Shown here: in pieces, positions 2,379-61,995 of the stretch | Numbering within the stretch: position 1 is the stretch's first letter | Layout of the letters: each line of letters opens with the position of its first letter | From: Octopus vulgaris | Taxonomy: Eukaryota | Direction of reading: 5' to 3' | DNA: 64,000 bases | NCBI GenBank assembly: GCA_951406725.2 | Contig: OX597814.1 | Span: 105,648,001-105,712,000, forward strand | Notes under the pieces: model-generated | What the model was told of the DNA's origin: nothing | The model's input: only the letters and a program-made list of their open reading frames with translations | Database searches by the model: none | Program-made: the position numbers and the translations under genes

Positions 2379-3074
2379 TCTGGTACACGTCATTGAAGCG
2401 GGCCAGGCAGCATCATGCCTTTAAACGGCGTATACGGATCAAGTATCATACACAAAGGGCGATTTTAATTTGTATAAATTGGCTGCATAATTCCATTTAG
2501 TTGTTCTTTCTAGCAGGCCTAGAGGCGAGGCAGAAATCTCCTCCGTTGGCTCGTTGTATTTAAGTAGGCTCGATACACCTTTATAACTACCTAAATTCTC
2601 CCCAAGGAAGAAATCAGTAACGCTCTGTAAGGGGAGAAGGCTAACGTGTAATGAAGTAGGGTTGTAGCAAGAATTAAGTAAAAAGAAAGAAAGAAAAAAA
2701 GAAAAACAAAAACACCAGTTTCACCGTCAATGTTCTTTATATATATTGTGCAGCAGCAGTATGGTCTACCCTGATACACACACACACACACACACATACA
2801 CACATACAAGTTTGTACAAAACCCTTGAAATACTAGGTTTTACGAAGAAAAATCTATAAGAGGCTCAGTAAAGAGTTGTTAGACATTCCTAAGATTCTTC
2901 ATCTGAGATTCTTTAGGCGAATAGATGCACACACTCGGGTGTGTGGTGCATCGACAGATCAACAAATACACCAGCTCAACCACAAGTATTTACTTTCTTA
3001 GGAAGAACTTAGTATTCAAAGAAATAAATTACACATACATACCTGCATTCATACATATGTATATTCTTTTCTAC

Positions 3075-3463
3075 TATAGGCACAAGGCTCGAAATTTTGT
3101 GGGAGCGGGGCCAGTCAATTAGATTGACTCCAATACGCAGCTGGCATTTAATTTACCGACCCCGAAAGGATGAAAGGCAAAGTCGACCTCAGTGGAATTT
3201 GAACTCAGAACGTAAAGACAGAGGAAATACCTATTTCTTTACTACCCACAAGGGGCTAAACACGGAGAGGACAAACAAGGATAGACAAACGGATTAAGTC
3301 GATTATATTGACATCAGTGCGAAACTGGTACTTATTTAATCGACCCCGAAAGGATGAAAGGCAAAGTCGGCCTCGGCGGAATTTGAACTCAGAACGTAGC
3401 GGCAGACGAAATACGGCTAAGCATTTCGCCCGGCGTGCTAACGTTTCTGCCAGCTCCCCACGC
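3075..3463 (-). mobile_element. SINE family A, tandem/composite copy
   Basis: Reverse complement of 783-1015 with the body duplicated. Confidence 0.88.
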
Positions 3464-3787
3464 TTTACATATACGTATATTCTTTCCTAATCTTCCTCCC
3501 AGTGCACATGCACAGGCGTTTATGCAGTTTGCATCAGAAAAACCTCTTATAGGATTTTCAGTCCCACACTGCCGCTGAAGAAAGTGGTTAGGGTGTCACT
3601 GTGTAGCTTAGATTTTACCATTTTTTTTTTTTTTTGTTTTCATCATGGTCTGGTGTCCATCACTGTCTTTGCTGTTGAAACGTTTTTCAAGACCGCCTTG
3701 CCTAATGATGCTACCCCCACAGAAGTGCCACCCCCTACGAACAAAAAAGGATCGCAGGGGGGCAAACAAAGCCCTCCGCGCACACAA

Positions 3788-4414: not shown

Positions 4415-4763
4415 TCTTCTTGTTTCAGTCATCGGACTTTAGCCATGTAGGATCGAATCGACCCCCAGGACTTCTTTTTCAAAGCCTAATACTTATTCTA
4501 TCGGAATCTTTTGTTGAACTACTAAGTCACAGGAGCAAAACCACATAAGCACCAGTTGTCAAGCAGTGGCGGACACACACACACACACATACACACACAA
4601 CACACAAACACAAATTTGTTGATATATGCATCGAGTTTTTTTTTCAGTTTCCGTCTACCAAATCTACTCACGAAATTGTGGTCTTAGCATACACCTGCCC
4701 AAAGTGCCACCAGGAGCTAGGTGGCTAGGAAGCAAGCTTCTTACCACACAGACACACCTGCGC
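4415..4763 (-). mobile_element. SINE family B, diverged
   Basis: Reverse-complement similarity to 1939-2378. Confidence 0.8.
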
Positions 4764-4904
4764 ATACGTGTGTGTGTATGCGTGTGTTAAACGTGCATGT
4801 TTGTATATTTGAGGTGATTGGTTGATTAACTGTTTATCACGTAATGACAGATTTTTGAATCTGTTGCCACAACCTCTTGAAGAATTGTAGGAGAACATGT
4901 TTGG

Positions 4905-4990
4905 TAAAGTGTCCTTTGTGAGGAATCTTTGTCATGGTAACAACACATTTGACAGCATCACAGTGAAGATTACTCACAAATTTCTTTCGC

Positions 4991-4997
<7 letters not shown>
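4905..4997 (+). repeat. 93-bp unique segment duplicated at 50899-50991
   Basis: Identical TAAAGTGTCCTTTGTGAGG...TTTCTTTCGCATATATA at both positions. Confidence 0.92.
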
Positions 4998-5026
<29 letters not shown>

Positions 5027-5221
5027 ATATATATAATATACATATATATGTGTGTGTGTATATATATTGCATATGTATTTACACACACACACACACACAT
5101 ATATATACATACATACATGCATACATACATATGGTGTATGTATATAAATACATAATATAATATTTTTATATTATAGCATTATGGCGTTTTAGAACAATCA
5201 GATTGTAATCTAGCACTGCCA

Positions 5222-5804
5222 ATGGACCATTAGTCAGCGAAAGAGGGAGAGAGAGAGAGAGAAAGAATGAGACAGTGAAGGTGGCGTGTTATTAAAGAGA
5301 TATTCGCATAAATGCTGCCATCTTTAACTCTTTTATGATAGGTTAGAAATCAATTAAGAAAACAGTTAGCGGATATCTATGGCTGAAACCTCCATCCCAT
5401 TGGCTACTTGGTTATCGGTAGTGCGGCGGCGAAGGATTGGTGTTTGCCTTGTGTCCAAGGTCGTTTCATGCGGCTGAACTGGTTTTCAATAACGCTTGCA
5501 ACACACGCACACACACGCACGCACACGCACGAACACGAACACGCACACACACACGCACACACGCCCCACACACACACAATCTATTTTCTGCCTCAGAACA
5601 CTCTCTTGCAAGGTGTTGGTGAGGGCCCTGATTTACTGCGCTACGTTTTGTTTTTTTACAGCAGAAGAGACGAACCGAGTTTGTTAAAAGATTTAAAGTA
5701 GAAATAACGAAATGTAGTATGAGCAACTTTGACCACTTACGATTACGAAATTATGTACGAGTGTGTGTTTGTGTGTGTCTGTGTGTGTGTATACGTATGT
5801 ATTC

Positions 5805-5850
<46 letters not shown>
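5222..5850 (+). repeat. ~620-bp local segmental duplication, copy 1 (paralogue 54591-55210); continues at 7661-7704 after the insertion
   Basis: Near-identical sequence; ORF track gives the same peptides (MVIGSAAAKD..., MLILHFVIST...) at both loci. Confidence 0.95.
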
Positions 5851-5852
<2 letters not shown>

Positions 5853-5972
5853 ACAATCAAGGAACGGCCATAATAGGCCATTCACCCACTAGAAATAACA
5901 GCCAAAGCTTCAACCGCAAATAAAAGTTAATTCTGTAAACCAGGAGAAAATTTAAAAAACATTTACCCTGTA

Positions 5973-6079
5973 ATTTCTTATACGATATACCGTTTCATCT
6001 GCTGATTAATGGTAAACTAACCTGATTAAATTAAATCAAGCCAATCTTCCACAGGCCCTCAGATTCATCAGTAAGAAAT
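5973..6079 (-). ncRNA. Type I hammerhead ribozyme, copy 1
   Basis: Minus strand: AUUUCUUA-CUGAUGA-AUCUG...CAGAU-GAAA-CGG UAUA UCG-UA^UAAGAAAU. 8-bp stem I, 5-bp base of stem II, stem III, GUA cleavage triplet. Confidence 0.85.
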
Positions 6080-6465
6080 AGCCCAAGTCGGAACAGATAT
6101 TTTCACGAGGCATTTCCGACCTTGCCAAGTTTATATCTGACCTAAAATTTTCAAATCGTCGCACTCGCGCCAAATTTATCGGCAGCAAATAAATATAAGC
6201 CGTCGATTCCATTACGGAATTAACCAGAAAATTCATAATTAATCAATATAGGGTGGCAAAAAAAAATTTTGTAGAATTCTTTTGCCACCAGCGGCCTAGT
6301 AGGAAAAAATTAAATAGTCATAGACCATTTTTAAGTTTAACATCAACAATCAAGGAACGGCCATAATAGGCCATTCACCCACTAGAAATAACAGCCAAAG
6401 CTTCAACCGCAAATAAAAGTTAATTCTGTAAACCAGGAGAAAATTTAAAAAACATTTACCCTGTA

Positions 6466-6572
6466 ATTTCTTATACGATATACCGTTTCATCTGCTGATT
6501 AATGGTAAACTAACCTGATTAAATTAAATCAAGCCAATCTTCCACAGGCCCTCAGATTCATCAGTAAGAAAT
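6466..6572 (-). ncRNA. Type I hammerhead ribozyme, copy 2
   Basis: Same motif, 493 bp from copy 1. Confidence 0.85.
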
Positions 6573-6964
6573 AGCCCAAGTCGGAACAGATATTTTCACG
6601 AGGCATTTCCGACCTTGCCAAGTTTATATCTGACCTAAAATTTTCAAATCGTCGCACTCGCGCCAAATTTATCGGCAGCAAATAAATATAAGCCGTCGAT
6701 TCCATTACGGAATTAACCAGAAAATTCATAATTAATCAATATAGGGTGGCAAAAAAAATTTTGTAGAATTCTTTTGCCACCAGCGGCCTAGTAGGAAAAA
6801 TTAAATAGTCATAGACCATTTTTAAGTTTAACATCAACAATCAAGGAACGGCCATAATAGGCCATTCACCCACTAGAAATAACAGCCAAAGCTTCAACCG
6901 CAAATAAAAGTTAATTCTGTAAACCAGGAGAAAATTTAAACAATTTAAAAACATTTACCCTGTA

Positions 6965-7071
6965 ATTTCTTATACGATATACCGTTTCATCTGCTGATTA
7001 ATGGTAAACTAACCTGATTAAATTAAATCAAGCCAATCTTCCACAGGCCCTCAGATTCATCAGTAAGAAAT
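6965..7071 (-). ncRNA. Type I hammerhead ribozyme, copy 3
   Basis: Same motif in the third monomer. Confidence 0.85.
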
Positions 7072-7324
7072 AGCACAAGTCGGAACAGATATTTTCACGA
7101 GGCATTTCCGACCTTGCCAAGTTTATATCTGACTTAAAATTTTCAAATCGTCGCACTCGCGCCAAATTTATCGGCAGCAAATAAATATAAGCCGTCGTTA
7201 ATTCCGTAATGGAATCGACGGCTTATATTTATTTGCCCGATAAATTTCAGTAATTTAATCAATATAGGGTGGATATAAACTTGGCAAGGTCGGAAATTTT
7301 GTAGAATTCTGTTCCACTTGGGCT

Positions 7325-7431
7325 ATTTCTTACTGAAGAATCTGAGGGCCTGTGGAAGATTGGCTTGATTTAATTTAATCAGGTTAGTTTACCATTAATC
7401 AGCAGATGAAACGGTATATCGTATAAGAAAT
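7325..7431 (+). ncRNA. Type I hammerhead ribozyme, copy 4 (inverted arm, CUGAAGA variant)
   Basis: ATTTCTTA 7325-7332, CTGAAGA 7333-7339, ATCTG/CAGAT stem II, GAAA 7408-7411, GTA 7421-7423, TAAGAAAT 7424-7431. Confidence 0.85.
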
Positions 7432-7939
7432 TACAGGGTAAATGTTTTTTAAATTTTCTCCTGGTTTACAGAATTAACTTTTATTTGCGGTTGAAGCTTT
7501 GGCTGTTATTTCTAGTGGGTGAATGGCCTATTATGGCCGTTCCTTGATTGTTGATGTTGAACTTAAAAATGGTCTATGACTATTTAATTTTTTCCTACTA
7601 GGCCGCTGGTGGCAAAAGAATTCTACAAAATTTTTTTTTGCCACCCTATATTGATTAATTATATATATATATATATATATATAAATATGTATGCATATAT
7701 ATATGCATGTGTATCTTTTTGTCTTGCTCGCTTACCTTCAGGTGTTTGCTAAATTTTCTTGAGAACAATCCTTTCTTAGAGGTAAGACCATAGGGGTCTA
7801 CCTCTAGCATAGTAGATGTCCACTTTGTGTTCATCCCTCTTATGTGTATGTAATATAATTTTTCTGTATCTTCAGATTTTTCAACATGCTAGACCACTGG
7901 TTTTAAATTGATATTAATCAAATTAATATTCAATTTTTC

Positions 7940-7944
<5 letters not shown>

Positions 7945-8000
<56 letters not shown>

Positions 8001-13310: not shown

Positions 13311-13334
13311 AACTGCTCATAGGTATATTCTTTC

Positions 13335-13472
13335 GCTTTTACTCTTTACTTGTTTCGGCTATGTGACTGTGGCAATGCTGGAGCACCGCCTTTATTCGAG
13401 CAAATCGACCCCAGGACTTACTCTTTTTAGGTTTGGTACTTATTCTCTATCGCTCTTTTTTTGCCGAACCGC
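13335..13472 (-). mobile_element. SINE family B, 3' fragment
   Basis: GCTGGAGCACCGCCTTTA...ATCGACCCCAGGACTTA matches the family B tail. Confidence 0.8.
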
Positions 13473-14139
13473 TGGATTGGCAAAAAACGATGAATTTTTG
13501 CCGCATTCTGACTGCTATTTAAATACAATATTAACTTAGGGGATATATATGTACCCATACATACACACACACACAATCGCACACACATAGACATACGTTC
13601 CGTCAGTACTACCACATCTGTCTTTCTGTCAGTCTGCCTGTGCGAAATAGAAAGAGAGGGGTCCTCAGGCGGTTCTATTCGTTGGAATACACAGCTACCC
13701 AGAAGTAGTGGATCCGGAGCAAATAAATCTCTGATTTCACTGCTCTCTCTCTCTCTCTCACACACACGCACACACACAGTCATGTCTCTTTAAGAAAAGA
13801 CGAAATGGTAAAGCATAGTCATGTTTATAAGACATTCCACATGAAATGATGATATATCGACGAAGGAAACTAAAAGACAACGAATCGAAGAACAGCGAAA
13901 CAAAAGCCAGAATGCCATCAACTCGTGTCTTGTTAGCAGCAGTCACGGTTTCACATCACGCCTATGGATGATTGATGTATTTCGTTGTATTTATATCAGT
14001 TGCATAATAGAATTCTATAGAATCTGCCGATGAATTCTTTCTTTCTTTTACACCGAACTGTGTTACTCACTCACCATTTTTCATTACATTCCTTGCTGAG
14101 AACGTTCTTCCGCTGTCTCTTATCTCCTCACTCTTTGCT

Positions 14140-16249: not shown

Positions 16250-16362
16250 TTTTCTTTTACTTGTTTCAGCTGTTTGATTGCGGCCATGCTGGGGCACCAC
16301 CTTGAAGAATTTTTTGTCGAATTACTCGAACACTGTACTTTCTTCTTCTTCTTCTTCTTCTT

Positions 16363-16421
<59 letters not shown>

Positions 16422-16704
16422 GATACTGATGCCGTTTTTTCTTTAGCTGAATCCCCCTAAGTTACGGGGACATAAACATACCAACATTGGATGTCAAGCG
16501 GTTTTGAGGGACAAATACAAATACACACACACACACACACACATACACACACACGACGGGCTTCTTTCAGTTTCTGTCTACCAAATTCACTCACAAGGCT
16601 TTGGTCAGACCGAGGCTATAGCAGAAGAGACTTACCCAAGGTGCTACGCAGTCGGACTGAACCCGGAATCATGTGACTGTGAAGGAAGCTTTTTACCACA
16701 CAGC

Positions 16705-16706
<2 letters not shown>
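16250..16706 (-). mobile_element. SINE family B, interrupted by (CTT)n(TTA)n
   Basis: Tail at 16250-16300, head at 16555-16706. Confidence 0.8.
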
Positions 16707-16746
<40 letters not shown>

Positions 16747-17494
16747 GTACGTGTGTGTGTGTGTGTGTGTGTCATCTAAGAAATAGCTCAGTGACCAGTG
16801 ACATCCAAATGAACAACACTCCGAGGTACACCATGCTCTCTCTCTCACATGCATCTACCTCCGCCCTCTCTCTAGTATATTCTCAATCCATCTATTTACT
16901 AATTGACCACTGTTTAGATATAATTAAGTAGGTCTTCCTCTTCCTCCATTATTTTCCACCCCTCTCCTTCTTTCCTTCTCTCTTTATTTCACTCTCTATC
17001 TCTCACTCTCACCTTATTCCTGTATTTTTTCTTTCTCATTCGTCCTCTCACCTTTTCCTTCATATCTCTCCGTCTTCATTCCTTTTTTCTTCCTGTTCAT
17101 GGAATGGCTTCAATATTTCTTTTTTTCTTTCTTCTTTCCTTTTCTTCCTTCTTCTTTCGCTTTTTCTCTCTCATTATACACCTCTCACCAATCCCCTTAT
17201 ACTCCCTCACCTCCCTCTCATATTTTCTTCTTCTAGTCCCACCCTAACACAAGATTCTATATTCATTGTGTCTCGTATATTCTCTCTTCTGTATCTCTAC
17301 ACACCATACATACATACTTGTGTGTGTGTGTGTGTTTTATCTATTTATCTATATTTATTTGTTTATCTATCTACTTATTGCTCTATTACAACTGAGAGTA
17401 TATTTTGCGAGTCAGGTTTCACGCCACGCGTCAAGTTGCGAGAGGCAAACTCTCACTGATCAATTTTAATAATGATAATAAAGATAATAATTAT

Positions 17495-17712
17495 GGTTTC
17501 AAATTTTGACCTAAGGCCAGCAAGTTCGGCGGTAGAGGGGCTGGTCGATTACATCGATCCCAATACTTAACTAGTACTTATTTTCATCGACCCCCGAAAT
17601 GATGAAAGGCGACGTCGACCTCGGCAGAATTTGAACTCAGAGCTTAAAGACGGACAAAACGCTGCCAAGCATATCCCCCCGCGCGCTAACCATTCTGCCA
17701 GCTCACTGCCTT
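17495..17712 (-). mobile_element. SINE family A, older copy
   Basis: GATGAAAGGC...GAATTTGAACTCAG...TTCTGCCAGCTC. Confidence 0.8.
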
Positions 17713-17724
17713 AAATAAGACTAT

Positions 17725-18447: not shown

Positions 18448-18894
18448 TCACAAGTCTGTTCTGTGGAGCTGACTATCTCATATTTAATTTACCAACTTTT
18501 CAGAAATATGCCAAGCGATTTATAGAGACTGTTTTCTCCCCCCTCCCCTCTCTCTCTCTCTCCCTCGTTTGTTTGTCATGTGACCACAATATCCAATCGC
18601 AGCCAGAGCAGGCCACTGAACACTACATAACACTGCATCAGACCACAACCACACTGCAGCCATTTTATACTACAAAACTTTACTAATACACCTCACTGCA
18701 CTCCACTGCTCTCCTTCTGTCTCCTTATATTACAACCACACCCTAACCGCACTGAAAGACGTGGTAAAAAAAAAAAAACTCTCTCATTTTACAGTTTGAC
18801 AAACATTTTAACCCTAAATGCACCGATCCGATCTCTGATGGGAACAAGAACCCCCCTCACCCACAACACGCATAAAAGGAGGAGTGGCAATTAG

Positions 18895-19562
18895 TTCGAC
18901 CTCGGCGGAATTTGAACTCAGAACGTAACGGCAGACGAGATACCTGTTTCTTTACTACCCACAAGGGGCTAAACATAGAGGGGATAAACGAGGACAGACA
19001 AACGGATTAAGTCAATTATATCGACCCCAGTGCGTAACTGGTACTTAATTTATCAACCCCGAAAGGATGAAAGGCAAAGTCGACCTCGGCGGAATTTGAA
19101 CTCAGAACGTAGCGGCAGACAAAATACCGCTAAGCATTTCGCCCGGCGTGCTAACGTTTCTGCCAGCTCGCCGCCTTACACAAAGAAAAATATTCTTTTC
19201 TACTCTATGACCGACATTTTTAGGGAGGGGGCCAATCGATTAGATCGACTCTAGTACGCAACTGGTACTTATTTTATCGACCCCAAAAGGATGAAAGGCA
19301 AAGTCGACCTCGGCGAAAATTGAACTCAGAACGTAACGGCAGACGAAATGCCTATTTCTTTACTGCCCACAAAGGGCTAAACAGACAAACGGATTAAGTC
19401 GATTATATCGACCCCAGTACGCAACTGGTACTTCTTTAATCGACCCCGAAAGGATGAAAGGCAAAGTCGACCTCGGCGGAATTTGAACTCAGAACGTAAC
19501 GACAGACGAAATACAGCTACGCATTTCGCCCGGCGTGCTAACGTTTCTGCTAGCTCGCCGCT
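18895..19562 (-). mobile_element. Cluster of tandem/nested SINE family A copies
   Basis: Four CCTCGGCG...TGAACTCAGAACGTA bodies. Confidence 0.88.
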
Positions 19563-19974
19563 TTCCACTGTGAAAAATACTAGCGAAAGAAATCTTGTTT
19601 CTTGCATTAAATATATCTGAAAGCAAAAAACCTTTTAAGGACCCTTTTGGAAAACTGTTGTGAATCTCTAAACTACTATTTCGCCTGCGTGGATACCCCA
19701 ACATCTGTCCTTGTTTAAGTGAATGAAAGGAGTGTAGTGTCTTTGTTGAGTTGGGTAGTTTTGTATGTGGTTAGGGGTGTGTGTGATTGATGTTCAATGT
19801 ATTGTATTGTTGTAATGTCTACCTTACTTGTGTATGCTGCAATGTACATACGTTATATATAAAGCATAAACATATATACACGTCTGTGTATGTATATATA
19901 TATATATATATATACGGAAAAAAGTCAAGGTAGAAAATGCTAAAATAATATATATATACTGACTTTGTGTGTGC

Positions 19975-23312: not shown

Positions 23313-23739
23313 ACATATATATAAATATATATAGCAAACAGATGTATTAGTTTAACACTCGGGAAGGTGAGAAAGTATTTTATGTTTCGAGCCTATGCTC
23401 TTCAACAGAAAGGAACACATATATATTTGGCTAGAAAGTGACACTATTGTATTGTATTACAATAATATTTAATATATATAGTATCATTTAATATATATAG
23501 TATAATCATTGTCGTTTTCCATTCGTTGGACGAGCAAGAATACAAGTGGGGTTAAAATTCACAACAACTGTTTCGGCGGCCTTTTTTAAAATAAATTCTT
23601 AGATTACATCATGGTGTCATCTTCAGGTAAATTTTAAACAAAAAAAAAACAACAACAGGTAATGCAGAAATACTGATGAATCGCTCACCAACTACTTTGT
23701 GGGAGTAATCCATATGGATAGGCGCGTGCATTTTATAGT

Positions 23740-24012
23740 CTTTTATTCGTTTCAGTCATTTGACTGGAGCACCGCCTTTAGTCGAACAAATCGACCCCAG
23801 GATTTGTAATCCTAGTACTTATTCTATCGGTCTTTTTGCCGAACCGCTTCTGCCAGCTCGCCGCCTTAATTTCAGTATCTCTCTACCAAATTCACTCACA
23901 AGACTTTGAACGGCCCGAGGCTATAGTAGAAGACACTCGTCCAAGGTGCCACGCAGTGGGACTGAAGCAGGAACAATGTGGTTGGTAAGCAAGCTACTTA
24001 CCACACAACCAC
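23740..24012 (-). mobile_element. SINE family B with internal deletion and a patch of family A head (23848-23867)
   Basis: B tail, then TTCTGCCAGCTCGCCGCCT, then B head. Confidence 0.8.
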
Positions 24013-25011
24013 TATTTCACCTATATATACATACAATCTAAAACTAGGTAAGGACAACTTTAAGTTGCTCCAGTATGGGCACAGTACCCGGCATTGCGTT
24101 CTACATGCTGAAATATCTAGATTTTAACGAATTCTGCAATTAACATATTGACACACACACATATTGAAAGAGAGAAGGGCGAAATTGTGTCTTGTGTCAG
24201 TTGTAGCCTGAGAATAAGTTGTCTCCTTAGAAAGATCTGAGACCTGTTGCTAGGTGTTTAGCCCTAGGTCACTCGTTATGAGACTGGATTTGTTTAAGAC
24301 AAAATATTACATCATTCAAACTGAATAGAACCATGCATACTACTACTACTACTACTACTAAGCGATGTTAATTTTTATTTTATTTTGATTTTATGTAGTT
24401 GATATTTTTCTGTTACTCTTTCACTAATTCTCCCCCTCCCCTCGCTCTCTTCCTCCCTCTCCCTTTCTTTCTTTATATCTCTCTCCCCCCTCTCTCTCTT
24501 TCTGTGTCTCTGTCTCTCTCGTTCTCCACACACACATATAGAAACATTTTCGCGATGCTCTACTGTGCACTTTTTGTTATCTATAACTAAAAAACAAAAA
24601 AACAAAACAAAACAAAAAAGTGCGGTTCACACACAAAATACGTCTCATAAAAACACAGCCAGACACCACGCACGCACACACACACACACAGACACACGCA
24701 CAAGTATGCACCCTATAGTGTTGTTCTGAAGAACTCCCTAGGGAGATTCCCCCTTTTTATCATAAAAATCTTTCTAAATCTTCCATTTTTATTTTCGAAA
24801 TGCAATCCGGAGAAATCAGAAACTTCTGGGTTTTTTTTCTTCCTCTTGAACCAAAAACCGACGGTTCCTTCATTATGTCATTTGTTCTGCATTTATATAC
24901 AAATATACACTCACCTATTTAATCACAAACACATCCTGCATTCTGTTTTCTCTTCATTTCTCTTCCCCCCTCACTTCTGATTAACCTTCGTGGTTAATAA
25001 TAAAACCACCG

Positions 25012-29380: not shown

Positions 29381-30249
29381 ATATATACATATATGTATGT
29401 ATGTATGTGTATGTCGTTCTAGCGTTTTCATCTCATTCCATATTTCCTGATCGATATTGCTATAATCCATAATACGACCTAAATGGAATCAGATGTATTC
29501 CCAGACATAGTTTTTTTCACTTTCTATCGCTTAGTCACAAGAGGAACGGCAACAGGCCTTGACCTTTTGCAGGACCTCTCAGAATAGCGCGTCGAAAGGG
29601 GTCTGAGGAAAATCTATGACTCATGGCTTAGCCCCAAACCAAAAACTTGGTTGTAATCCTTGCAACACACGCTGATATCTCTCCCCCATGAGTTGATATC
29701 GTTCATCTCATGAAGGTCTCCCCTTTCCATCAGTGTTATCTTTCTTTGAAGCGTATCGTTAAAAAAAAAAAATTCCGCCAAAGTGCTGCACATTCATAAC
29801 GAATCATAATCGAACTTTTTTTTCAACCATAGGCTCCTAACTTCGGCTGTCCTGGTTTCTGGGTGACCATCAGTCTAATCCTCGCTCACTTCAGACAACC
29901 TTTCACACATTGTGATTAGAAACCGCTCTTCCAAAAGTGTTTAATTTTCACGCAAGACTACATAGGGGATTAGAGTAGGCAATGTAATCGACACCAGTAA
30001 TTAACGTGAACATAATTTATTGTCCTAGGATGTATAAAAGCTAAAGCAAACCCGGGATTTGAAATTAGAACATAAGAGATGCAGCGAAAATATTACAACG
30101 GTCTCTGTCGAGTATTCCGACCCAGGCATTGAATAGTAAATAGATGTGTCTTCCTCTCAAGAGTAGAATAATTCTGAGGTGAAAGAAGATTCTTCAGTTT
30201 ATGGAGTCTTCTGTTGGGTCGGTTACCAGATTTCCATGGCAATATAGCT

Positions 30250-30444
30250 GAAATCAGAACATTACCCCTGAAAGGGATAACTGGGATCCCAACACTACCC
30301 CCGAAAGAGATAACAGGAATCACAACATTATCCCTGAAAGGGATAACTGGGTCCACAACATTACCCCCGGAAAGGGATAACTGGAATCACAATATTATCC
30401 CTGAAAGGGATAACTGAGATCCCAATATTGCCCTTGAAAGGGAT
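30250..30444. repeat. 33-bp minisatellite, ~6 copies, each with hairpin TTATCCC-TGAAA-GGGATAA
   Basis: Unit GGAATCACAACATTATCCCTGAAAGGGATAACT. Confidence 0.9.
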
Positions 30445-31222: not shown

Positions 31223-31274
31223 CACACGCACACACGTATGTACATACGCACAGATTTTAAAATATATGTATGTA

Positions 31275-31659
31275 TTCTTTTCTTTCTTTCACTCATTTGA
31301 CTGTGGCTATGCTGGAGCACCCCCTTTAGCCGAGCAAATCGACCCGAGAACTTATTCTTTGTAAGCCTAGTACTTATTCTATCGGTGTCTTTTGCCGAAC
31401 CGCGAAGTTAGAGGTACGTAAACACTCCAGCATCGGTTGTCAAGCGATGTTTGGCGGACAATCACAGACACACAAACATACATACATATACATATATATA
31501 TATATGGTGGATTTCCGTCTACCAAATCCACTCACAAGGCTTTGGTCGGCCCGTGGCTATAGTAGAAGACACTTGCCCAAGCTGCCACGCAGTGGGACTG
31601 AACCCGGGACCATGTGGTTGGTAAGTAAGCAACTTAACACACAGCCACTCCTACGCCTA
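31275..31659 (-). mobile_element. SINE family B, near full-length
   Basis: Reverse complement of 1939-2378. Confidence 0.88.
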
Positions 31660-32950
31660 TATGCACTTATTTATGGTTATGTATGTACACATGCAAAAAT
31701 CTGCATCTCTATACACATACATTTGTATATAATAATTCATATAGATAGTTAAACATATGTGTATATATATATCAATATTTATATATATATATATGTATTT
31801 GTAAGGCTGTTTATTTCGTGTGCATGTGTGTGTACATGGGTTGTTTTACAAGGAAAATGTTGATAGTTACTTCGAAGTTCCAGCTTAATAACCGTTGTAA
31901 ATATGTAATAGAAAGATGGCAATTTATCAACAGTTGAAACATTCTGCTTTAGGCGGGGGGGGGGGAACGTAAAAAAACACATGTGGTCTTATTGTTTTCG
32001 TTTTCTGTCTGAAATATTTCAAGTTATTTCATTTCCAACATAATTCTATTTGAAAGAAAAAGAGCAATCATTATTTTTCTGTTCTATAAGAAATTTAAGA
32101 ATAGCTTTGATACTTTTAAGAGTTACAGAATTAATGTCGTTAACTGGCGGAAAAAAAGCTCTCATTCACCCGCATAGCTAAAGACTCTCTCTCTCCCTCT
32201 CTTCCCCCCCTCCCTCTCTATCACACGCACTCATCTCATTCGCATAGAATCGGCAACTTGTTGAGTTTGTGGTGCACTCTCAGCGATTAACCGCCTAGGT
32301 CCAGTGGCTCATGTGCTTTATATCACAAGGGAGACAATCCTTTCTTGACTAAGCGAAGTTGAAGTTGGTTAGAAGCTTGAAATTGAAATCAAAGTAAACA
32401 GCAAAGCGTACAGATTCTGCGTATTTACCATTTCTTTTCCGCCGCTGCACCTTGTAATGGACCCAAAGTTTGCAGTCGTTCATTGCGTTGACTTTCATCC
32501 ATCTCCGTTGAAGAATATTCACTGTCCCCTTCCCGAAAACTTATGGTCTTCTGCCAATATTAAAATATTGGCATTATTGACTGGGTGATGCCATAGTGAA
32601 AATGGTGAACGGTGTTTAATTAATTACTTTCCAGGTGTAGATTCTGTCCAGCTTCACTGCTTATTTATTTGCTTTTGTTTTCGCGTGTGCGTTCGATAAG
32701 CGACTTGACATTCCTGCTGCCAATATAATACCAATCATTTCAAGATCGATACACACATGTTCTTTTCAAATGTCTGTCCGTCTTGTCTCTATCACATAAA
32801 TCATTGAGACCACTGCTTAAAGAAGCTGTGGTTCCTTTCTTTTCAGTTCTACTTTATAACGAACTCAAGACCATTCTAGGAAGCCTCTCGTATTGATCAC
32901 ACACTCTTTTCCTTCCTTTCTTCCCTTCCTTCTTCCCCTCTTTCTTTCCT

Positions 32951-35680: not shown

Positions 35681-35761
35681 GCTCCTGTAGCAGGTAGAAT
35701 AAAGGCGGCATACACGAAACTTCGAAGTAACTGTCAACTAATTTTCGTTTAAGAATAAAGT

Positions 35762-36000
35762 AAGTACCAATTTCTTTATTGCCCACAAGGGGCTAAACAC
35801 AGAGGAGACAAACAAAGACAGACAAACGGATTAAGTCGATTACATCGACCCCAGTGCGTGACTGGTACTTAATTTATCGACCCCGGAAGGATGAAAGGCA
35901 AAGTCGACCTCGGCGGAATTTGAACTCAGAACGTAACGGCAGACGAAATACGGCCAAGCATTTCGCCCAGCGTGCTAACGATTCTGACAGCTCACCGCCT
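35762..36000 (-). mobile_element. SINE family A, full-length
   Basis: Reverse complement of 783-1015. Confidence 0.88.
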
Positions 36001-36028
36001 TGCTTAATAATAAAGTAAATATAGCATG

Positions 36029-36279: not shown

Positions 36280-36824
36280 CTATACGCAAATACACAATGA
36301 GATTTAATCACGTACAGAACACACACTCACGCATAAGGTTTAAACAACTTCGCTTATCTCTTCGTGTTATATCTTTAAGCCATCAATGTTTGTCCTGCTC
36401 TCCGCCTCTCTCTTTCCATTCTCTCTCCTTCAAACACTCTCCCTCTCATCTTTTTCACTTTTATCCGTGTTAAATGAAAACATCAGCAATTCCTAGTCTG
36501 CCAGTCTATTAATACCGTCATGCATTTTAATCAATACCTTCCTGTTTAACTTTCACTTCGATATGGAGACTAACAGGATACAAATTAGAGCCAATTGTGT
36601 GAGGCTTATGGTCTTTTAGTGTTTCGTATGTGTTGGTGTTGATTTAAGTGTCTCCCACCTGGTTTCTTACTATCACTTCAGGGATTACTTTCTCGCTCAC
36701 CCAACCTCACACGCATACTCAGACACACCATATACAAACACATATACATATATGCATACAAAAACATGCATACATACATACACAAACATACGTATATACA
36801 TACATATATATATATATATTATTT

Positions 36825-37020
36825 TTCTTTTATTTGTTTCAGTCATTTGAATCCGGCGATGCTGGAGCACCGCCTTTAGTCGAACAAATCGACCCCAGGA
36901 CTTATTCTTTGTAAGCCTAGCACTTAATCTATCGGCCTCTTATGCCGAACCGCTAAGTTACGGGAACGTAAACACACCAGTATTGGTTGCCAAGCGATGG
37001 TGCGGGGACAAACACACAAA
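36825..37020 (-). mobile_element. SINE family B, 3' half
   Basis: Tail match ending in the internal microsatellite. Confidence 0.82.
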
Positions 37021-37281
37021 CATATGTATATATATATATATATATATATAGCACCCTCGGTAGTCGAGGGATTACTGTATATGCTCCGATACGAACTAAC
37101 AAACACAAAACTAAACAAGAAAATAAAGAACAACTAAGAATTTGCCTAAAACTTAAAGAAATATCTGTACGCGCAGGTAAGTGATATTCCAATGAAAGAA
37201 ATTGAAAGTTGGATACATGAGGCTAAAATCGCTGTTCGACATTATCGGGATTGAAGTTTCTCACTTGCTTCTGGAAATCAT

Positions 37282-45770: not shown

Positions 45771-46159
45771 CTGCCAAAACAGATAATAACTCATATGAAA
45801 CACGTTGGAAATTTAGAGGTACGACTTGTGTCCACTTTTAAAAAAGCATAGAACAAGGGAAGACTAAGAAACAATGCCGAAGAAATTTTCGTATTCGGTA
45901 TGACAGCTTCAAACCTCACGTTAAGGAACCTTGCTATTTACTGCCATTTTCTATTGGGTTCCATGACTGGGCACTTCCAAAATTTATCACCATTCGTTGC
46001 AAGTGGCCAACTTTGAATATCCTGCTAGGAGGTCACCTAACAAAAATATAAAATCGTTAAGAGTGGTAACAACTTCCCTTATTTTACTTTCCGAATTAAA
46101 TTTTTGGTTACACGGAACAGGAGCTCGAAGGGTATAAATTGGCCACGGGAAATATTTAT

Positions 46160-46367
46160 TCTTTCTTTATTACTTGTTTCAGTCATTTGACTGCGGCCAT
46201 GCTGTAGCACCGCCTCTAGCCGAACAAATCGACCCCAGGACTTATTCTTTATAAGCTTAGTGCATATTCTAACGTACTCTTTTGCGAAACAGCTAAGTTA
46301 CGGAGACATAAACACGCCAACATCGGTTGTCAAGAGATGGTTGGAGGTCAAAAACACACACACACAG

Positions 46368-46405
<38 letters not shown>

Positions 46406-46560
46406 ATACGACGGGCTTCTTTCAGTTTCCGTCTAAATTCACTCACAAGGCTTTGGTCGATCCGAGGCTATAATAGAAGAGACCCAATATACTATGTAGC
46501 GAGACTGAACCCGGGACAGTGTGGTTGGGTAGCAAGCTTCTTACCACACAGCCACACCTA
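46160..46560 (-). mobile_element. SINE family B, near full-length
   Basis: Reverse complement of 1939-2378. Confidence 0.85.
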
Positions 46561-50898: not shown

Positions 50899-50991
50899 TA
50901 AAGTGTCCTTTGTGAGGAATCTTTGTCATGGTAACAACACATTTGACAGCATCACAGTGAAGATTACTCACAAATTTCTTTCGCATATATA
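50899..50991 (+). repeat. Second copy of the 93-bp segment at 4905-4997
   Basis: Identical sequence. Confidence 0.92.
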
Positions 50992-51358: not shown

Positions 51359-51404
<46 letters not shown>

Positions 51405-51407
<3 letters not shown>

Positions 51408-51640
51408 GAAAAATACAAACTGGGACAAGAACGAAAAACATTTAGAAGACGATACAAAAAACACGGACGGGACATTCAAAGCCTTCAATCTTCAGTCAAG
51501 AACCGGATCATCCTATCAGCCGAAATTGCTAGGATGATCCGGTTCTTGACTGAAGATTGAAGGCTTTGAATGTCTCGTCCGTGTTTTTTGTATCGTCTTC
51601 TAATTGTTTTACGATCTTGTCCCAGTTTGTATTTTTCTAC
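51405..51640. mobile_element. 236-bp fold-back element in (TA)n
   Basis: ~110-bp arms with few mismatches around a 14-nt loop (51516-51529). Confidence 0.8.
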
Positions 51641-51847
51641 ATATAATATATATAGCGCCGTCCGTACCCTCTTTGACTTTATGTAAGTATATATATATAT
51701 ATATTATAGATAGATAGATAGATATGTATATGTATACATATGTATGTATGTATATATGTGTTTGTATATGTATATATATGTATGTATATATGTGTGTGTG
51801 TGGTCCAACAGTACCTGCCTGGATATGTCACTCCTACCAATTCACAA

Positions 51848-52480: not shown

Positions 52481-52699
52481 CAACATCACCATCCCCGTCA
52501 CCTAGCCTACAATAAGTCACTCCTCTTGCACTTCTTATGTTAATCCTTTTCCTATCTGTTCCTCACTGTTTCTACCCCCTCCCCCTTTCCCTCTCGCTAC
52601 ACTGTAAAGTGTCACAAGAGAAATCAACCAATTAACGCTTATATCGCCTATTAATAGTAATATATTCAGGTACTTCCGGTTTCTGCATGTTGTGATTTT

Positions 52700-52835
52700 C
52701 ACATTCCGCCAAGGTCGACTTTGCCTTTCACCTATTCAGTCTTAATAAACAAGGTACCAGTTGAGCACTGGGGTCGATGTAATCGTCCTCCACACCTCTC
52801 AAAATTACTGGCCTTGTGCCAAAATTAGAAATAAG
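52700..52835 (+). mobile_element. SINE family A, diverged fragment
   Basis: ATTCCGCCAAGGTCGACTTTGCCTTTCA...GGGGTCGATGTAATCG. Confidence 0.7.
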
Positions 52836-53292
52836 TATATTGACTTAATTTAAAAGTGAATTATGTTAATATTGCATTAGAAGTGCAGACAATAATTTGT
52901 CAAAATAAATATATTGAAAGTTTAGTGTAATATTTTAGTTGTTACAATTACTAGGGACTATACGTTTGTTTGGAGAGTGGGGACCTAATAAATTTGGCTA
53001 GCAACCCAGCCCATGTCCTAGGGCCGTAGGGTGTCTACTACTGCCCTATTTCATCTCTCAATCTGACAGCAAAAGCAGCCGAACGTTCGTCAGATCAGCA
53101 GTCACACCTGAAATAAGAGAAACCCGCATTAGATTATATCGTCAACTAAATACAGACCGAATGGATGGTCATGGTTGGAAAATCTTTATGTCTGTTTGAT
53201 CACGGATCACCTGGATGTGTTCGACAGAATATCAACACGATCATGAACACTCGTGATGACCAAGTGATAACATACAACACTATTATCATTTC

Positions 53293-54536: not shown

Positions 54537-54590
<54 letters not shown>

Positions 54591-55197
54591 ATGGACCATT
54601 AGTCAGCGAAAGAGGGAGAGAGAGAGAGAGAAAGAATGAGACAGTGAAGGTGGCGTGTTATTAAAGAGATATTCGCATAAATGCTGCCATCTTTAACTCT
54701 TTTATGATAGGTTAGAAATCAATTAAGAAAACAGTTAGCGGATATCTATGGCTGAAACCTCCATCCCATTGGCTACTTGGTTATCGGTAGTGCGGCGGCG
54801 AAGGATTGGTGTTTGCCTTGTGTCCAAGGTCGTTTCATGTGGCTGAACTGGTTTTCAATAACGCTTGCAACACACGCACACACACGCACGCACACGCACG
54901 AACACGCACACACACACGCACACCCACACACACACAATCTATTTTCTGCCTCAGAACACTCTCTTGCAAGGTGTTGGTGAGGGCCCTGATTTACTGCGCT
55001 ACGTTTTGTTTTTTTACAGCAGAAGAGACGAACCGAGTTTGTTAAAAGATTTAAAGTAGAAATAACGAAATGTAGTATGAGCAACTTTGACCACTTACGA
55101 TTACGAAATTATGTACGAGTGTGTGTTTGTGTGTGTCTGTGTGTGTGTATACGTATGTATTCATGTATATATATATATATATATATATAAATATGTA

Positions 55198-55210
<13 letters not shown>
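54591..55210 (+). repeat. Segmental duplication, copy 2; carries the empty (TA)n site for the 5851-7660 insertion
   Basis: Matches 5222-5850 joined directly to 7661-7704. Confidence 0.93.
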
Positions 55211-55233
<23 letters not shown>

Positions 55234-55671
55234 TGAGAGAGAGAGAGACCTAGGTCGAAAGTTAATCGTTTACTTCCTTCTCCTTCTTCAAAGCTGTTAT
55301 TTTTTCTTTCTATTGTTTTCTTTTTAGCTTTTCTTTGCCCCAAAAAAACTCACTCAGACGCGGTAACACTCGCACTAACACTTACACTACACTCACACAA
55401 ATCCACTCACACTCAGGTATACTATTATTCGATATCTTTTGGGCGAGATTTCGCTGCTGTTTAAAGTAAATCAAGTAATTGCCGTACAGACACACTCCCG
55501 CCCTCTTTAGTTCGAGAAAACTGACACCAGTATCATTCGAACCCACAACACAAAAAAAAAGCATCTCGATACTAGCGTCGTAACATGATTGGCTGTGAAC
55601 CGTAACGGAAGGGACTTAACTCTTCGTTGTGAACTTGGAATTAATTGTCCACCCTAATAATAGTCCATGCG

Positions 55672-56068
55672 GAAATGTGGCAAGCTGGCAGAAACGTTAG
55701 CACGAAATGCTTAGCGGTATTTCATCTGTCTTTAAGTTCTGAGTTCAAATTCCGCCGAGGTTGATTAAATAAGTACCAGTTACGCACTGGAGTCGATGTA
55801 ATCGACTTAATCTCTTTGTCTGTCTTTGTTTGTCTCCTCTGTGTTTAGCCCCTTGTGGGCAATTCAGAAATAAGAAACGTTAGCACGAAATGCTTAGCGG
55901 TATTTCGTCTCCCTTTACGTTCTGAGTTCAAATTCCGCCGAGGTCGACTTTGCCTTTTATATTTCCGGGGTCGATAAATTAAGTTCCAGTTGCGTACTTG
56001 TGTCGGTCTAATCGACTGGCCCCATTCCCCAAAAATTTTGGGTCTTGTGCTTGGAGTAGAAAAGAATA
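55672..56068 (+). mobile_element. SINE family A, tandem double copy
   Basis: Two AGAAACGTTAGCACGAAATGCTTAGCGG heads. Confidence 0.85.
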
Positions 56069-57159
56069 ACAGTCCATCCGTCTCCTTCTCCCCCCCTCTC
56101 TCTCTCTCATCCAATTGTCGTTCTCAACGCATGATCAACTCTCGTGCAGCGAGGCCTCTAGTCAAAGGCGTTCCAGCCATAATCATTTTGTTATATAGAT
56201 GACAACTACATTGTCTAACGTATTCTTTTCCCCTTAAGACAATAAGCAGTAATTTTACAGAGATTTAGCTGCTATGTCTAGCAAATCGACCGACTCTTTT
56301 TTCTCTTTTTGTGTGTGAATGTTACCACTTGGACCAGTTTCTTTTTTTTTTTTGCTGTAGAATTCAATTGTTTTGGGGGTAATTCTTTAGACATTTAGGC
56401 CCCAGATTATATTTTTACGCTACACCAAATTTGCAGGCCCACCCCCTCGACCACCACCACCACCACCACTTTTTTTTTCAATTCTCTTCTTCTGTGAGTT
56501 CTGACCTTAATAATTACATTCCAAAATATCTCTTGGGAAAATTGTTCTGTGATCTACTGGCAACAAAATGTCGTTTGACCATTCTATGGATGAAAGGGAA
56601 GTTCTATGATAGTAAAATCATCTACACAACAACAACAACAACAACAGCAGCAGCAGAGTGGAGGTTAAATTGATATTAATGGCCTCCTCCCTCTCCTCAT
56701 AGGAAATGGCTCGGAACAAACAAAATGCGAATTAGTTTACGGCAGTTGGACAAATCAACGGAGTTGGTTGGTTTGCTTTGGTCGGCAGTAAAAGAGAAAA
56801 TTAGGGGGAATAAAGATAATGGAGACAGGAAGAGTTAGTCCAACGTCTGACTGGTGTGTGTGAGAGGTTAATCCATTAACATCGGCTTAATTAGTAAACA
56901 AGTCTCTATGTTGCGTTGACTAATTATTATAGTCAGCCTCCATTTACCGTTTTTGTATCACGAAATCCAAGAGAACAGATTAGTTCCCCATGGAGACTTT
57001 AAGTACCAGAATCCTCCATGATAAAACATTCGTCTCAAGTTCTGTGCAGCAACAAATTTTGTGTTTTATAATCGACTCTGAAGTTTACGATTTTTCCATT
57101 TAGACAGTAATTATTTTGGTTGGTGCTGTCATTGTTGTTATTATTATTATTTGTACAAC

Positions 57160-57330
57160 TGCCTCAAGCTGACAGAACTGTTATCACACCAAGAAGAATG
57201 CTTAACAGTATTTCGCCCGTCTTTATGTTTTAAGTTCAAATTCCGCAGAGCTTGACTTTACCTTTCATCTCTCAGGGATCAATAATATAAGTACCAGTTG
57301 ACCACTGGAGTCGATGGTCTCAACTAGCCC
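57160..57330 (+). mobile_element. SINE family A, old copy
   Basis: AAGTTCAAATTCCGC...CCTTTCATC...AAGTACCAGTTG. Confidence 0.7.
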
Positions 57331-58082
57331 TCTCCCTCCTCTCCCTCTAAAACCGTCTACCTTATGCTAAATTTTGAATATTCTTAGTAGAAGTTCTACG
57401 TCAGCAATACATAAGGCGGGTAAGGGCGATGATGTTTTCGGGGAAACTCTCGGCCTCGATGAAAATAAACAAGTTGGTTTGTTTCGGAGAATTTTCGGGC
57501 CGGAGTCACCTAGGAATAACTTCCCGAAATCCTGAGGGGCACTCTTTTTGTTCAAACCCACATTGGCTTTTTCAAGTTCTTCATGGAAAACAAAGTAAAG
57601 ATAGAAACGGAAGTGTTCTGTCAGTGAATTTGAAAAAAATAAAAGATAATGGGTGAGCATGTGACTCCTAATCTGAGGTGATCAAATAAGCATGAAGCAA
57701 GCAAACGAGTGTAACAGAAATAGAATGAACGAAAATATTTTAAGCTGGTGCCTGTCAACTGGAGAACAGCAGTTGGACAAGGTTTTGTGCACCTAATAGT
57801 CAGGTTGCCCCGGATCTATAGGGGTCCCTTGACGGGCTCTAATCGGAGTTTCTCTTGTATTAGGGCTACTTTATAGACGCCTTCATATACTTTGTATATT
57901 TTGAATATTTATATCTGTTTTCCTTTTCTTCTCTCCATATTTTATATAACCTCGCCCCACCACACATGCACACACACACATACACACACTTCACACACAA
58001 ATTGTAGTGTCTTTGTAATGTTCTCTTCATCCGTTGCCACAGTGACAAACAAAAGAAATCATCATCATCATCATCTGTATTC

Positions 58083-58627: not shown

Positions 58628-59825
58628 AATTAGAGGAATATTTAATCTAGTAACTACTGCAGCTGCTTGTTTAGCCGAAAGCACTATTATTCTTGTTAAA
58701 GTCGTCTGCTGTAAGATGCAAATGTCATCCATTTGTCAGTTCCATTCTTTTCAACAGTTGACACATTGTAAAAAATAAATTATCGCGTTTGGCCCAAGCG
58801 AAATTTCCATTGTTAAAATGAAGACGGAAAGCTGACTGTATCATTGGCTCATTGTGCTAAATGCTTAGCAGCCTTTCTTCGACATCTAATGTGCTGAGTT
58901 CAAATCCTCCTGTGGTCGACCTGGTCTTTCATCCATTTGGAGTCGATACAATCAAGTACCAATCATGTACTGGGATTATTATCGATTAAACCCCTCCCCT
59001 TATATTTATGCCAATATTGAACAGTGAGAATGAATTTTCAGCACTGCATTGATGGGCAAACACTCTTTACTTCTGGATTAACAAGGCTACCAATGTTTTC
59101 ACGTGAATAGATCTTCACAATTATCCATGTGTGTCACATGGAAGTTTTGGTACTCGTTTCCACTAACACTTCCATGTTTCCATGTGGTACACTTGAACAA
59201 ATTGTGAAGATCTCTTCACCTGAAACCGTTGGTTGCATTGTTAACCCACAAATCAAAGAAATATATGTATATGTATATTTATATACAGGCTTCTTTTGGT
59301 TTCCGCCTCTTGAATCCACTCACATAGCATCGGTCCACTAAGGCTATTCAGTCCATTGGGGCTATGGGTGAAGTCACCATCTGAAGATGGCACTGACCTC
59401 GAAGTCATGTGGTTAGGAGACAAACTCGTTGGCAATGCAGCCAGGTCTTCGGGACTCTCTGAGATCTTTCTCTTAACACAATTTTAACTCATGCAATTTC
59501 ATATAATGGAACGAACACAAGCTTTCAATGGGAGTTGCTTATGTCAGTGTTCCTTGGCTGTTAGAGACAGGGTAGGACAATTGTCGTAACGACGACACAC
59601 ATTGCAGCAGGAAATGATGTGCATCACTACTGTCCTGTCACCGGGGAATAATCCTGTAGTTTTCCTTTAATCTCAACATTGGAACCGTTTCGAGTCATGA
59701 GATTATCTCCCCTTCTCATTTAGAGTTAGTCTGAATTGTTAGTTGAGAATTGTGACACCGCCGCTACAGGTGGATAAAATTATAATAGATCAAGAAATTG
59801 TGTTGTACTGTATTTGATAAACCTG

Positions 59826-61212: not shown

Positions 61213-61739
61213 ACCCAGAATGTCACTATTTCTCGTTTTCCATTTCTCTACTTTCACAATTTCTGATAACGCCATTCCTTCTTTATCTTTTCAAGATATC
61301 TTTTTGTCTTTTTTTACCTCCCCCGCCACCCCTCCACATCATCAGATTCTTCTTAGTTTCTTCATTCTTGACCAATTATCAACAAGTACTTGGTACCTAT
61401 TGAACATTTCTAAAACCAAAATCCCATCCTCCCTATTACAGTTCCACAACGATTAAAATTCTTATTCCAAAGGTCCTTCATGAATTAGGTTTCTTTTTTT
61501 CTTCCTTTCTGCGATTCTCTTCTTCGATGATATTCGTTCGATCTTATTTCTGTTGCTCTCTCATTCAGAAACGGTTTGATGCGTTCGCCTCATATGATGA
61601 AGATACTCCCATAACATGTCTATACTCTGTTATAGTTGTTCTATGGTGGTCAATAAATATAATTGTCTAATTGCAGATAATGTCTAGTTCTGGGGAGTGC
61701 GGTGGGGGAAGGTCGACGACTAAATTTAGACAAAGTTTG

Positions 61740-61995
61740 TGGTTCTGTAGAAAGAAATTTGCTTCCCAACCACATAGTTCCAGGTTCAGTCCCACGGCGT
61801 GGCACCTTGCGCAAGTGTCTTCTACTATAGCCTCGGGCCAACCAAAACCTTGTAAGTGGATTTGGTGGAGATAAACTAAAAGAAGCTCGACGTGTGTGTG
61901 TGTCTGTCTGTCCCCCTACCGCTTGACAACCGGTGTTAATGTGTTTACATCAACGTAACTTAGCGGTTCGATAAATAATAATTACTAAACTTTAA
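61740..61995 (+). mobile_element. SINE family B, 3'-truncated
   Basis: GGTTCAGTCCCAC...GCAAGTGTCTTCTACTATAGCCTCGGGCC. Confidence 0.82.

Follow-up and report, generated by a model that had tools for sequence, protein, structure and literature searches.

Where one stretch of DNA appears to carry both the filled and the empty state of a single insertion site, it has to be asked whether the empty copy preserves the site as it was before the insertion, or whether it has a history of its own. This question is raised by a hammerhead ribozyme array in Octopus vulgaris, located in a window of 64,000 nt, by which we mean the whole stretch analyzed here (contig OX597814.1, positions 105,648,001 to 105,712,000). 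An earlier note on this window had read the array as a recent insertion of a mobile element into a (TA)n microsatellite at one locus (hereafter locus 1), with the empty state conserved in a paralogous sequence at another (copy 2, at locus 2). Copy 2, which lies ~49 kb away in the same orientation, corresponds over its 620 nt to locus 1 minus the array and one TA run, and contains no element letters. The pairwise alignment of 5222–5807 with 54591–55165 covers 575 columns, with a single substitution and two gap events (6 and 5 nt) that are both inside a CA-type microsatellite, which confirms the near-identity that had been noticed between 5222–5850 and 54591–55188. The sole substitution (C at 5471, T at 54840) is a CpG to TpG change, typical of a genuine mutation. 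On the other side of the array, the sequence was indeed found to be the continuation of the copy-2 TA run, exactly and over a longer distance than had been claimed, since the 45 nt of 7660–7704 (a 24-nt TA run plus 21 nt) are identical to 55166–55210. When this continuation was compared with the 389 other ends of TA runs in the 64-kb window (runs of at least 10 nt, both strands), the best match was the 21 nt at 7684 and the runner-up shared 5 nt; at least 21 nt in common were found in 18 of the 67,631 distant pairs of TA-run ends. Outside 5222/54591 and 7704/55210 the flanks are unrelated, and similarity breaks off sharply at both ends.

The coordinates of all features are collected in the table below. 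Its last column, like several of the arguments that follow, draws on public DNA runs: 5 of the 24 listed runs (X1–X4 and X6) were examined as Logan contigs, which drop rare variants, and X6 was too shallow (~2×) to cover the flanks. No run on the list is recorded as RNA, and ten entries presumed to be RNA contain 0.26–0.30 of the words. No contig of these runs spans a junction of copy 2 or of the array; as microsatellites are masked in the contigs, these junctions are read from the assembled sequence.

Table. Features of the two loci and other repeats, in window coordinates.
Feature	Position	Strand	Remark or basis
Second donor segment, 93 nt, ends in TA run	4905..4997	+	
Donor block, likely the single-copy original position of the duplicated sequence	5222..5807	.	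Alignment; X2–X4 contigs entering from locus-1 flank
Left part of interrupted (TA)n target, 43 nt	5808..5850	.	Last 2 nt also fit element
Left arm, 2.7 head-to-tail monomers	5851..7198	-	Monomers 5851–6343, 6344–6834, 6835–7198
Type I hammerhead 1	5974..6078	-	Predicted cut after 5981
Type I hammerhead 2	6467..6571	-	Identical to hammerhead 1
Type I hammerhead 3	6966..7070	-	
Inverted right arm, almost one monomer, hammerhead sense plus	7199..7659	+	Ends 236 nt beyond predicted cut
Mosaic zone mixing forward- and reverse-monomer letters	7236..7320	.	9-mer matches
Type I hammerhead 4	7326..7430	+	Core CUGAAGA; predicted cut after 7423
Right part of target: 24-nt TA run and 21-nt tail common to copy 2	7660..7704	.	
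Exact 93-nt copy of 4905–4997	50899..50991	+	Arranged and oriented like copy 2
(TATC)n tract flanking copy 2 on the left	54537..54590	.	X1 and X2 left-flank contigs reach in by record length
Copy 2 (array-free, 620 nt), likely a derived templated insertion	54591..55210	+	Alignment; block depth in X1–X3
Uninterrupted 24-nt TA run matching insertion target	55166..55189	.	
Acceptor TA run	55201..55231	.	First 10 nt are homology with donor 7695–7704
Dispersed SINE-like family, copies	783–1016, 3060–3493, 17482–17713, 18874–19579, 35759–36001, 52668–52839, 55671–56068, 57142–57339, 58821–58992		
Second dispersed family, copies	1939–2379, 4456–4763, 13326–13473, 16251–16708, 23733–24026, 31262–31662, 36814–37022, 46152–46560, 61738–61970		

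The 1.8-kb insert (5851–7659) is made of 2.7 tandem monomers of ~492 nt (491–493) and an inverted arm. In the left arm the hammerhead sense is the minus strand, with the RNA 3′ end at 5851, 130 nt beyond the predicted cut; the RNA 3′ ends of both arms thus face outward, each overlapping the TA by 2–3 nt (on the right, the first 3 nt of the TA run from 7660 also fit the element). A structure scan of the whole window returned exactly four hammerhead matches, all of them in the array, three in consecutive minus-strand units and one in the inverted arm. Hammerhead 1 combines a 7-bp stem I, the CUGAUGA motif at 6071–6065, a 68-nt stem II domain, GAAA at 5996–5993, and a self-complementary stem III. 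Overall, the motif in the array has a CUGANGA core, and its stem III is weak (−13.6 kcal/mol as a self-duplex, −0.2 as a hairpin). The loop III letters 5987–5988 change as a linked pair from UAUA to UGCA in four of four runs, keeping the palindrome; since adjacent loop III letters are unable to pair within one hairpin, this linked change fits a dimeric hammerhead, a configuration described for metazoan repeats in the accessible part of PMC4209133. Of the family variants in stem II, two preserve pairing, one disrupts a pair, and one falls at an unpaired position, none of the listed variants being in the core; the disruptive one, at 6005, is one of six mapped family variants. Rfam gave no match at the gathering threshold over the window and, for one monomer, three weak unrelated matches without a hammerhead, a miss that is probably explained by the long stem II.

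No ORF of at least 110 aa lies within 5851–7659, where GC is low (0.34 for 6001–8000), and no autonomous Penelope ORF was recognized by eye among the 90 ORFs of at least 110 aa in the window. The array also includes a near-palindrome of ~930 nt (6728–7662), and monomer 3 alone carries an 8-nt insertion, a local duplication, at 6939–6946. Within the inverted arm, the mosaic zone departs from this regular anatomy: among its 76 9-mers, 19 match only the forward monomer, 24 only the reverse one, and 33 neither, as compared with 77 of 77 reverse matches in a clean stretch of the arm. This zone is probably an assembly consensus artefact caused by reads misplaced by one period, which suggests consensus errors at locus 1.

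Taken together, we consider it very probable that the array is a retrozyme inserted in a (TA)n tract. That it was inserted into (TA)n, as the earlier note had it, is borne out by the TA found on both sides of the array and by the pre-insertion sequence being contiguous in copy 2. The filled site carries 43 + 24 nt of TA against 24 nt at the empty one, which requires a long duplication or an expansion, and a target-site duplication, which in non-LTR retrozymes is longer than 4 bp when present, is unreadable inside (TA)n. The stronger claim that the element targets (TA)n does not follow from a single site in a window of which 5.7% consists of TA runs. Instead, TA targeting finds its support in the literature and in a second, unrelated palindromic insert in TA: the head-to-head palindrome at 51404–51642, with arms of ~112 nt, 4 mismatches, a spacer of 14–16 nt, and TA-rich DNA on both sides. 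At its center we recognized by eye GAAA, a short stem III, the cut site, and stem I, which correspond to the 3′ half of a hammerhead whose first core half is missing, and this palindrome is likely an older Penelope-type inverted insertion.

With regard to mobility, the Penelope-type tandem-plus-inverted anatomy and a monomer depth ~10^4 or more times that of the flanks both agree with what had been proposed. In all three runs for which it was computed (X1–X3), the summed monomer depth amounts to 1.3×10^4 to 1.5×10^5 times the single-copy flanks, a ratio to be read as an order of magnitude (“very many copies”), contig depth not being copy number. The recent date of the insertion likewise stands, mainly on the array's own near-identity: monomers 1 and 2 show 0 substitutions in 491 positions and the arms 2 in 347, when the family is much more varied (1,928 of 7,509 X1 contigs are at least 99% identical, a count that includes another repeat at 4700–4809), and this difference is what makes the insertion young on the array's own evidence. 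Expressed as divergence, the block stands at 0.17% (0.004–0.97), the monomers at 0% (0–0.75), and the arms at 0.58% (0.07–2.08). Pattern scans for other copies of the element with their flanks found none in metagenome contigs (two patterns) and none in viral contigs.

Other repeats are also present in the window. One dispersed SINE-like family has internal subrepeats and copies that are 70–93% identical; a second dispersed family, with an internal microsatellite, reaches a summed depth near 10^6 at 4700–4809 in the examined runs, where its loose ends continue into TA-rich sequence. A 33-bp minisatellite of ~5.6 copies, with a higher-order period of 66–67 bp, occupies 30244–30444.

Which of the two copies is derived can be approached through the public runs. 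The block / locus-2 flank depth ratios are 0.64/0.71 in X1, 0.91/0.91 in X2, and 0.68/1.23 in X3, none of the six being near 2, and the candidate status of the block as a high-copy repeat was rejected on this single-copy depth. In three of the four runs, contigs lead from the locus-1 flank into the block, extending by record length to 5266 (X2), 5506 (X3), and 5268 (X4), all beyond 5251, where they would be expected to break if there were a second left junction; the X3 contig is unbroken from 5136 to 5497, and no contig spans 5222 in X1. The part of the block at ~5580–5800 is uncovered, and hence uninformative, in X1, X2, and X4. The block contigs of X1–X3 differ by one letter from copy 1 and by two from copy 2. 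Moreover, both window copies have a T at 5437/54806 where four of four covering runs read G, which makes the two copies each other's closest relatives and provides a usable haplotype marker. Both flanks of locus 2 are present as contigs in X1–X3, and locus 2 is therefore a separate real locus; judged by record length, the left flank extends into (TATC)n and the right one into TA. By depth and contig continuity, copy 2 itself looks absent from X1–X3. The notion of a “paralogous empty site” thus holds insofar as copy 2 offers array-free contiguous sequence, but not as a settled paralogue, copy 2 being seemingly absent from other individuals. Locus 1 is likely the ancestral place, and copy 2 a derived, unfixed extra copy in a compound microsatellite, or else an assembly error. 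The order of events rests on parsimony and not on dating; dating it by divergence was attempted and rejected, as the intervals of block and array overlap.

On balance, we lean towards an account in which a recent Penelope-type array sits in (TA)n and copy 2 is an unfixed repair patch made from a still-empty allele. The patch would have begun when the (TATC)n/(TA)n tract broke at ~54590 and its right-hand (TA)n end paired with the 10-nt TA run at donor 7695–7704; ~620 nt would then be copied leftwards through the TA run, at that time uninterrupted, and rejoined via ~2 nt of microhomology, the donor being either the same chromosome prior to the array's insertion or an empty homologue. For the second step, the anatomy and what has been published on the biochemistry of Penelope suggest that a Penelope-like GIY-YIG endonuclease/reverse transcriptase would cut both strands of the donor TA, and that cDNA primed from both ends at internal points of retrozyme RNA would yield two arms with their 3′ ends outward. 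The junctions of copy 2 have no poly(A) and show homology of ~2 nt on the left and 10 nt on the right; class 2 templated insertions also have microhomology junctions and lack poly(A), according to the available text of PMC5110952, and in human cells TA repeats break readily, their repair producing short templated duplications (PMC13645644, in the portion at hand). For the element, excerpts of PMC8557442 describe partial tandem plus inverted copies and a microsatellite bias as Penelope-like traits, and those of PMC11167929 a purified Penelope-like protein that acts on AT-rich DNA, where it cuts each strand and extends it, and that begins reverse transcription internally. Counting against this account, the TA lengths of the filled and empty sites do not add up in a simple way, the point estimate of divergence of the arms (0.58%) is above that of the block (0.17%), and the TA run of the empty site is identical to the right-hand one of the filled site, which would also fit a skip across the array. 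In addition, 620 nt is long for polymerase-theta patches.

Copy 2 is not the only local copy of this kind, since an exact 93-nt copy of a donor segment next to locus 1 is found on the same side of locus 2, likewise with TA homology at its right end and a sharp left end. Around 4905, one unbroken X1 contig runs across and the depth in X3 is about tenfold (4810–4980 being uncovered in X2 and X4), and 4905–4997 may be a low-copy repeat. It is possible that the 93-nt and 620-nt pair stems from one multi-switch repair event, from RNA-templated patching, or from a shared artefact.

The exact match between the empty TA run and the right flank bears on an alternative order of events, in which the array was already present and copy 2 derives from the filled allele, the array having been skipped by a TA–TA template jump or later lost by TA–TA recombination. 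Copy 2 reproduces with its 24-nt TA run and tail the entire right flank 7660–7704, the ~930-nt near-palindrome could stall synthesis, and the divergence of the arms (2/347) is not below that of the block (1/575); yet TA-run lengths mutate fast, which makes their equality weak evidence, the divergence intervals overlap, and an extra event would be needed that left no element letters in copy 2, where none are found. We regard this order as unlikely; if it were true, the element would still be an insertion, and copy 2 would be silent on its date. By contrast with a copy made in the genome, both copy 2 and the 93-nt copy could be artefacts of assembly or polishing, with the locus-1 sequence of an empty haplotype placed in the locus-2 microsatellite and the array heterozygous. 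The block is single-copy-like in three of three runs with adequate depth, the two copies differ from each other (one substitution and two repeat indels) no more than from other individuals (1–3 letters per 220–500 nt), both ends of copy 2 fall within microsatellites, and the mosaic zone betrays consensus trouble close by. However, no flank of locus 1 was carried along, unlike in an uncollapsed haplotig (a candidate that was itself rejected, as the two loci have different flanks and each of these is found elsewhere), the flanks of locus 2 are genuine single-copy sequence, and the junction of (TATC)n with the block is new sequence for which the assembler presumably required reads; we accordingly think such an artefact improbable. 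All readings but this one start from an empty locus 1, into whose (TA)n the array was inserted; under an artefact, the empty state would be allelic, which would also imply a young insertion.

Another origin for the two copies can be sought in the machinery of the element: a Penelope-type reverse transcriptase, primed at a nicked (TA)n, would have copied a plus-strand host transcript of locus 1, as it was before the insertion, from UA-rich points and stopped early. The two copies share their orientation, and each combines a sharp left end with TA homology at its right end; their donors are ~230 nt and their acceptors 3.6 kb apart (a toy chance of ~0.001), with a Penelope-type palindrome between the two acceptors, and the consulted portion of PMC5110952 argues for an RNA origin of class 2 templated insertions. 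Nonetheless, the sole purified Penelope-like reverse transcriptase, as far as the accessible part of PMC11167929 goes, depended on a motif of its own RNA and began synthesis in the absence of homology, the nearness of donor and acceptor better suits DNA repair, the donor transcript is only supposed, and the pairing may be a coincidence if the 93-nt segment is a low-copy repeat, as its ~10× depth in X3 could indicate. Such retro-copying, which would mean that the element machinery also duplicates host DNA locally, is in our view quite unlikely. As to the literal picture of the earlier note, in which the block, whether an ancient segmental paralogue or one member of a dispersed repeat family, was already fixed at both loci when the array came in, the presence of two copies in one window speaks for it, but the single-copy depth and single left junction in other individuals, the letter common to both copies and missing from four of four other runs, and the sharp end of similarity on both sides make it highly improbable. 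A 3′ transduction from the filled array was also considered as the source of copy 2 and rejected, since copy 2 includes the tail of the right flank but nothing of the element.

With an array in (TA)n and a copy 2 patched from a still-empty allele as the favored account, locus 1 gives a before-and-after view of one retrozyme insertion, whose target was a plain TA run of ~24 nt and which entailed no flanking loss. Both ends of the element are RNA 3′ ends with a 2–3-nt TA overlap, which fits the Penelope route proposed for animal retrozymes, and locus 1 is a candidate site where presence/absence typing could reveal current activity. As the element class, the Penelope link, and the TA bias are already published, the gain here is incremental; less expected is that the “empty site” itself appears to be a private copy of local origin, and that another such copy lies nearby. 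In this regard, we put forward as a long shot that nicked (TA)n, perhaps cut by the very Penelope-type enzyme that spreads the retrozyme, primes a local copy-paste of TA-ending host stretches of 0.1–0.6 kb from tens of kb away. If true, this process would have left its trace in the 93- and 620-nt copies, which come from one donor zone and lie in one acceptor zone, and patches of this kind would be built-in records of empty sites from which insertions could be dated within a single assembly.

How, finally, does this locus compare with known systems? In our search for octopus together with hammerhead or Penelope literature, which covered mostly open-access articles, only PMC8557442 was found; cephalopod retrozymes may be listed in supplements. 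The features and the working definition of non-LTR retrozymes are taken from the accessible sections of PMC7229834 and bioRxiv 10.64898/2026.07.22.740005. Like metazoan non-LTR retrozymes, the array has non-coding tandem monomers with one type I hammerhead per unit, low GC, and a very high copy number. That definition asks for complete type I hammerheads in two or more tandem units in a row, and here three successive minus-strand units carry one; the sequence is also non-coding, with GC below 50%, and part of a multi-copy dispersed family. The monomers, at 491–493 nt, lie outside the 150–450 bp called for: against repeats of 150–450 bp and RNAs of 170–400 nt, as given in those sections, the array monomer of ~492 nt is ~10% above the range, a limit that is descriptive and not mechanistic. 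The array further differs in its 68-nt stem II domain missed by Rfam, its inverted arm, and its (TA)n target. Judged by sequence, it appears to fit the working definition of a non-LTR retrozyme apart from monomer length, with self-cleavage and circular RNA as predictions.

The comparison with EN+ Penelope-like elements draws on the available parts of PMC8557442, PMC4209133, and PMC11167929. The array shares with them a partial tandem with an adjacent inverted copy, an insertion in a microsatellite with an unreadable target-site duplication, a hammerhead with a palindromic stem III, and 3′ ends internal to the unit; the first two of these features together make up the Penelope-like insertion footprint. 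Unlike them, it is without a reverse transcriptase or GIY-YIG ORF, and its ends lie 106 nt apart (130 vs. 236 nt past the cut), in excess of the optional Penelope-like tail of 30–40 nt. The array is not an autonomous Penelope element and works like a non-autonomous passenger.

As for copy 2, it resembles class 2 templated insertions and MMEJ duplications at TA in having an intact donor with an extra copy elsewhere, no poly(A), microhomology junctions, an apparently polymorphic state, and a TA-repeat acceptor; whether it also shares the lack of a target-site duplication that marks class 2 insertions is unreadable in TA. These classes are known from human cells, as far as the portions of PMC5110952 and PMC13645644 used here describe, and class 2 polymorphisms are read-confirmed, whereas copy 2 is a feature of the assembly sequence. 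It also stands apart from them in that its donor is local, 49 kb away and in the same orientation, and in that a second copy with the same geometry accompanies it.
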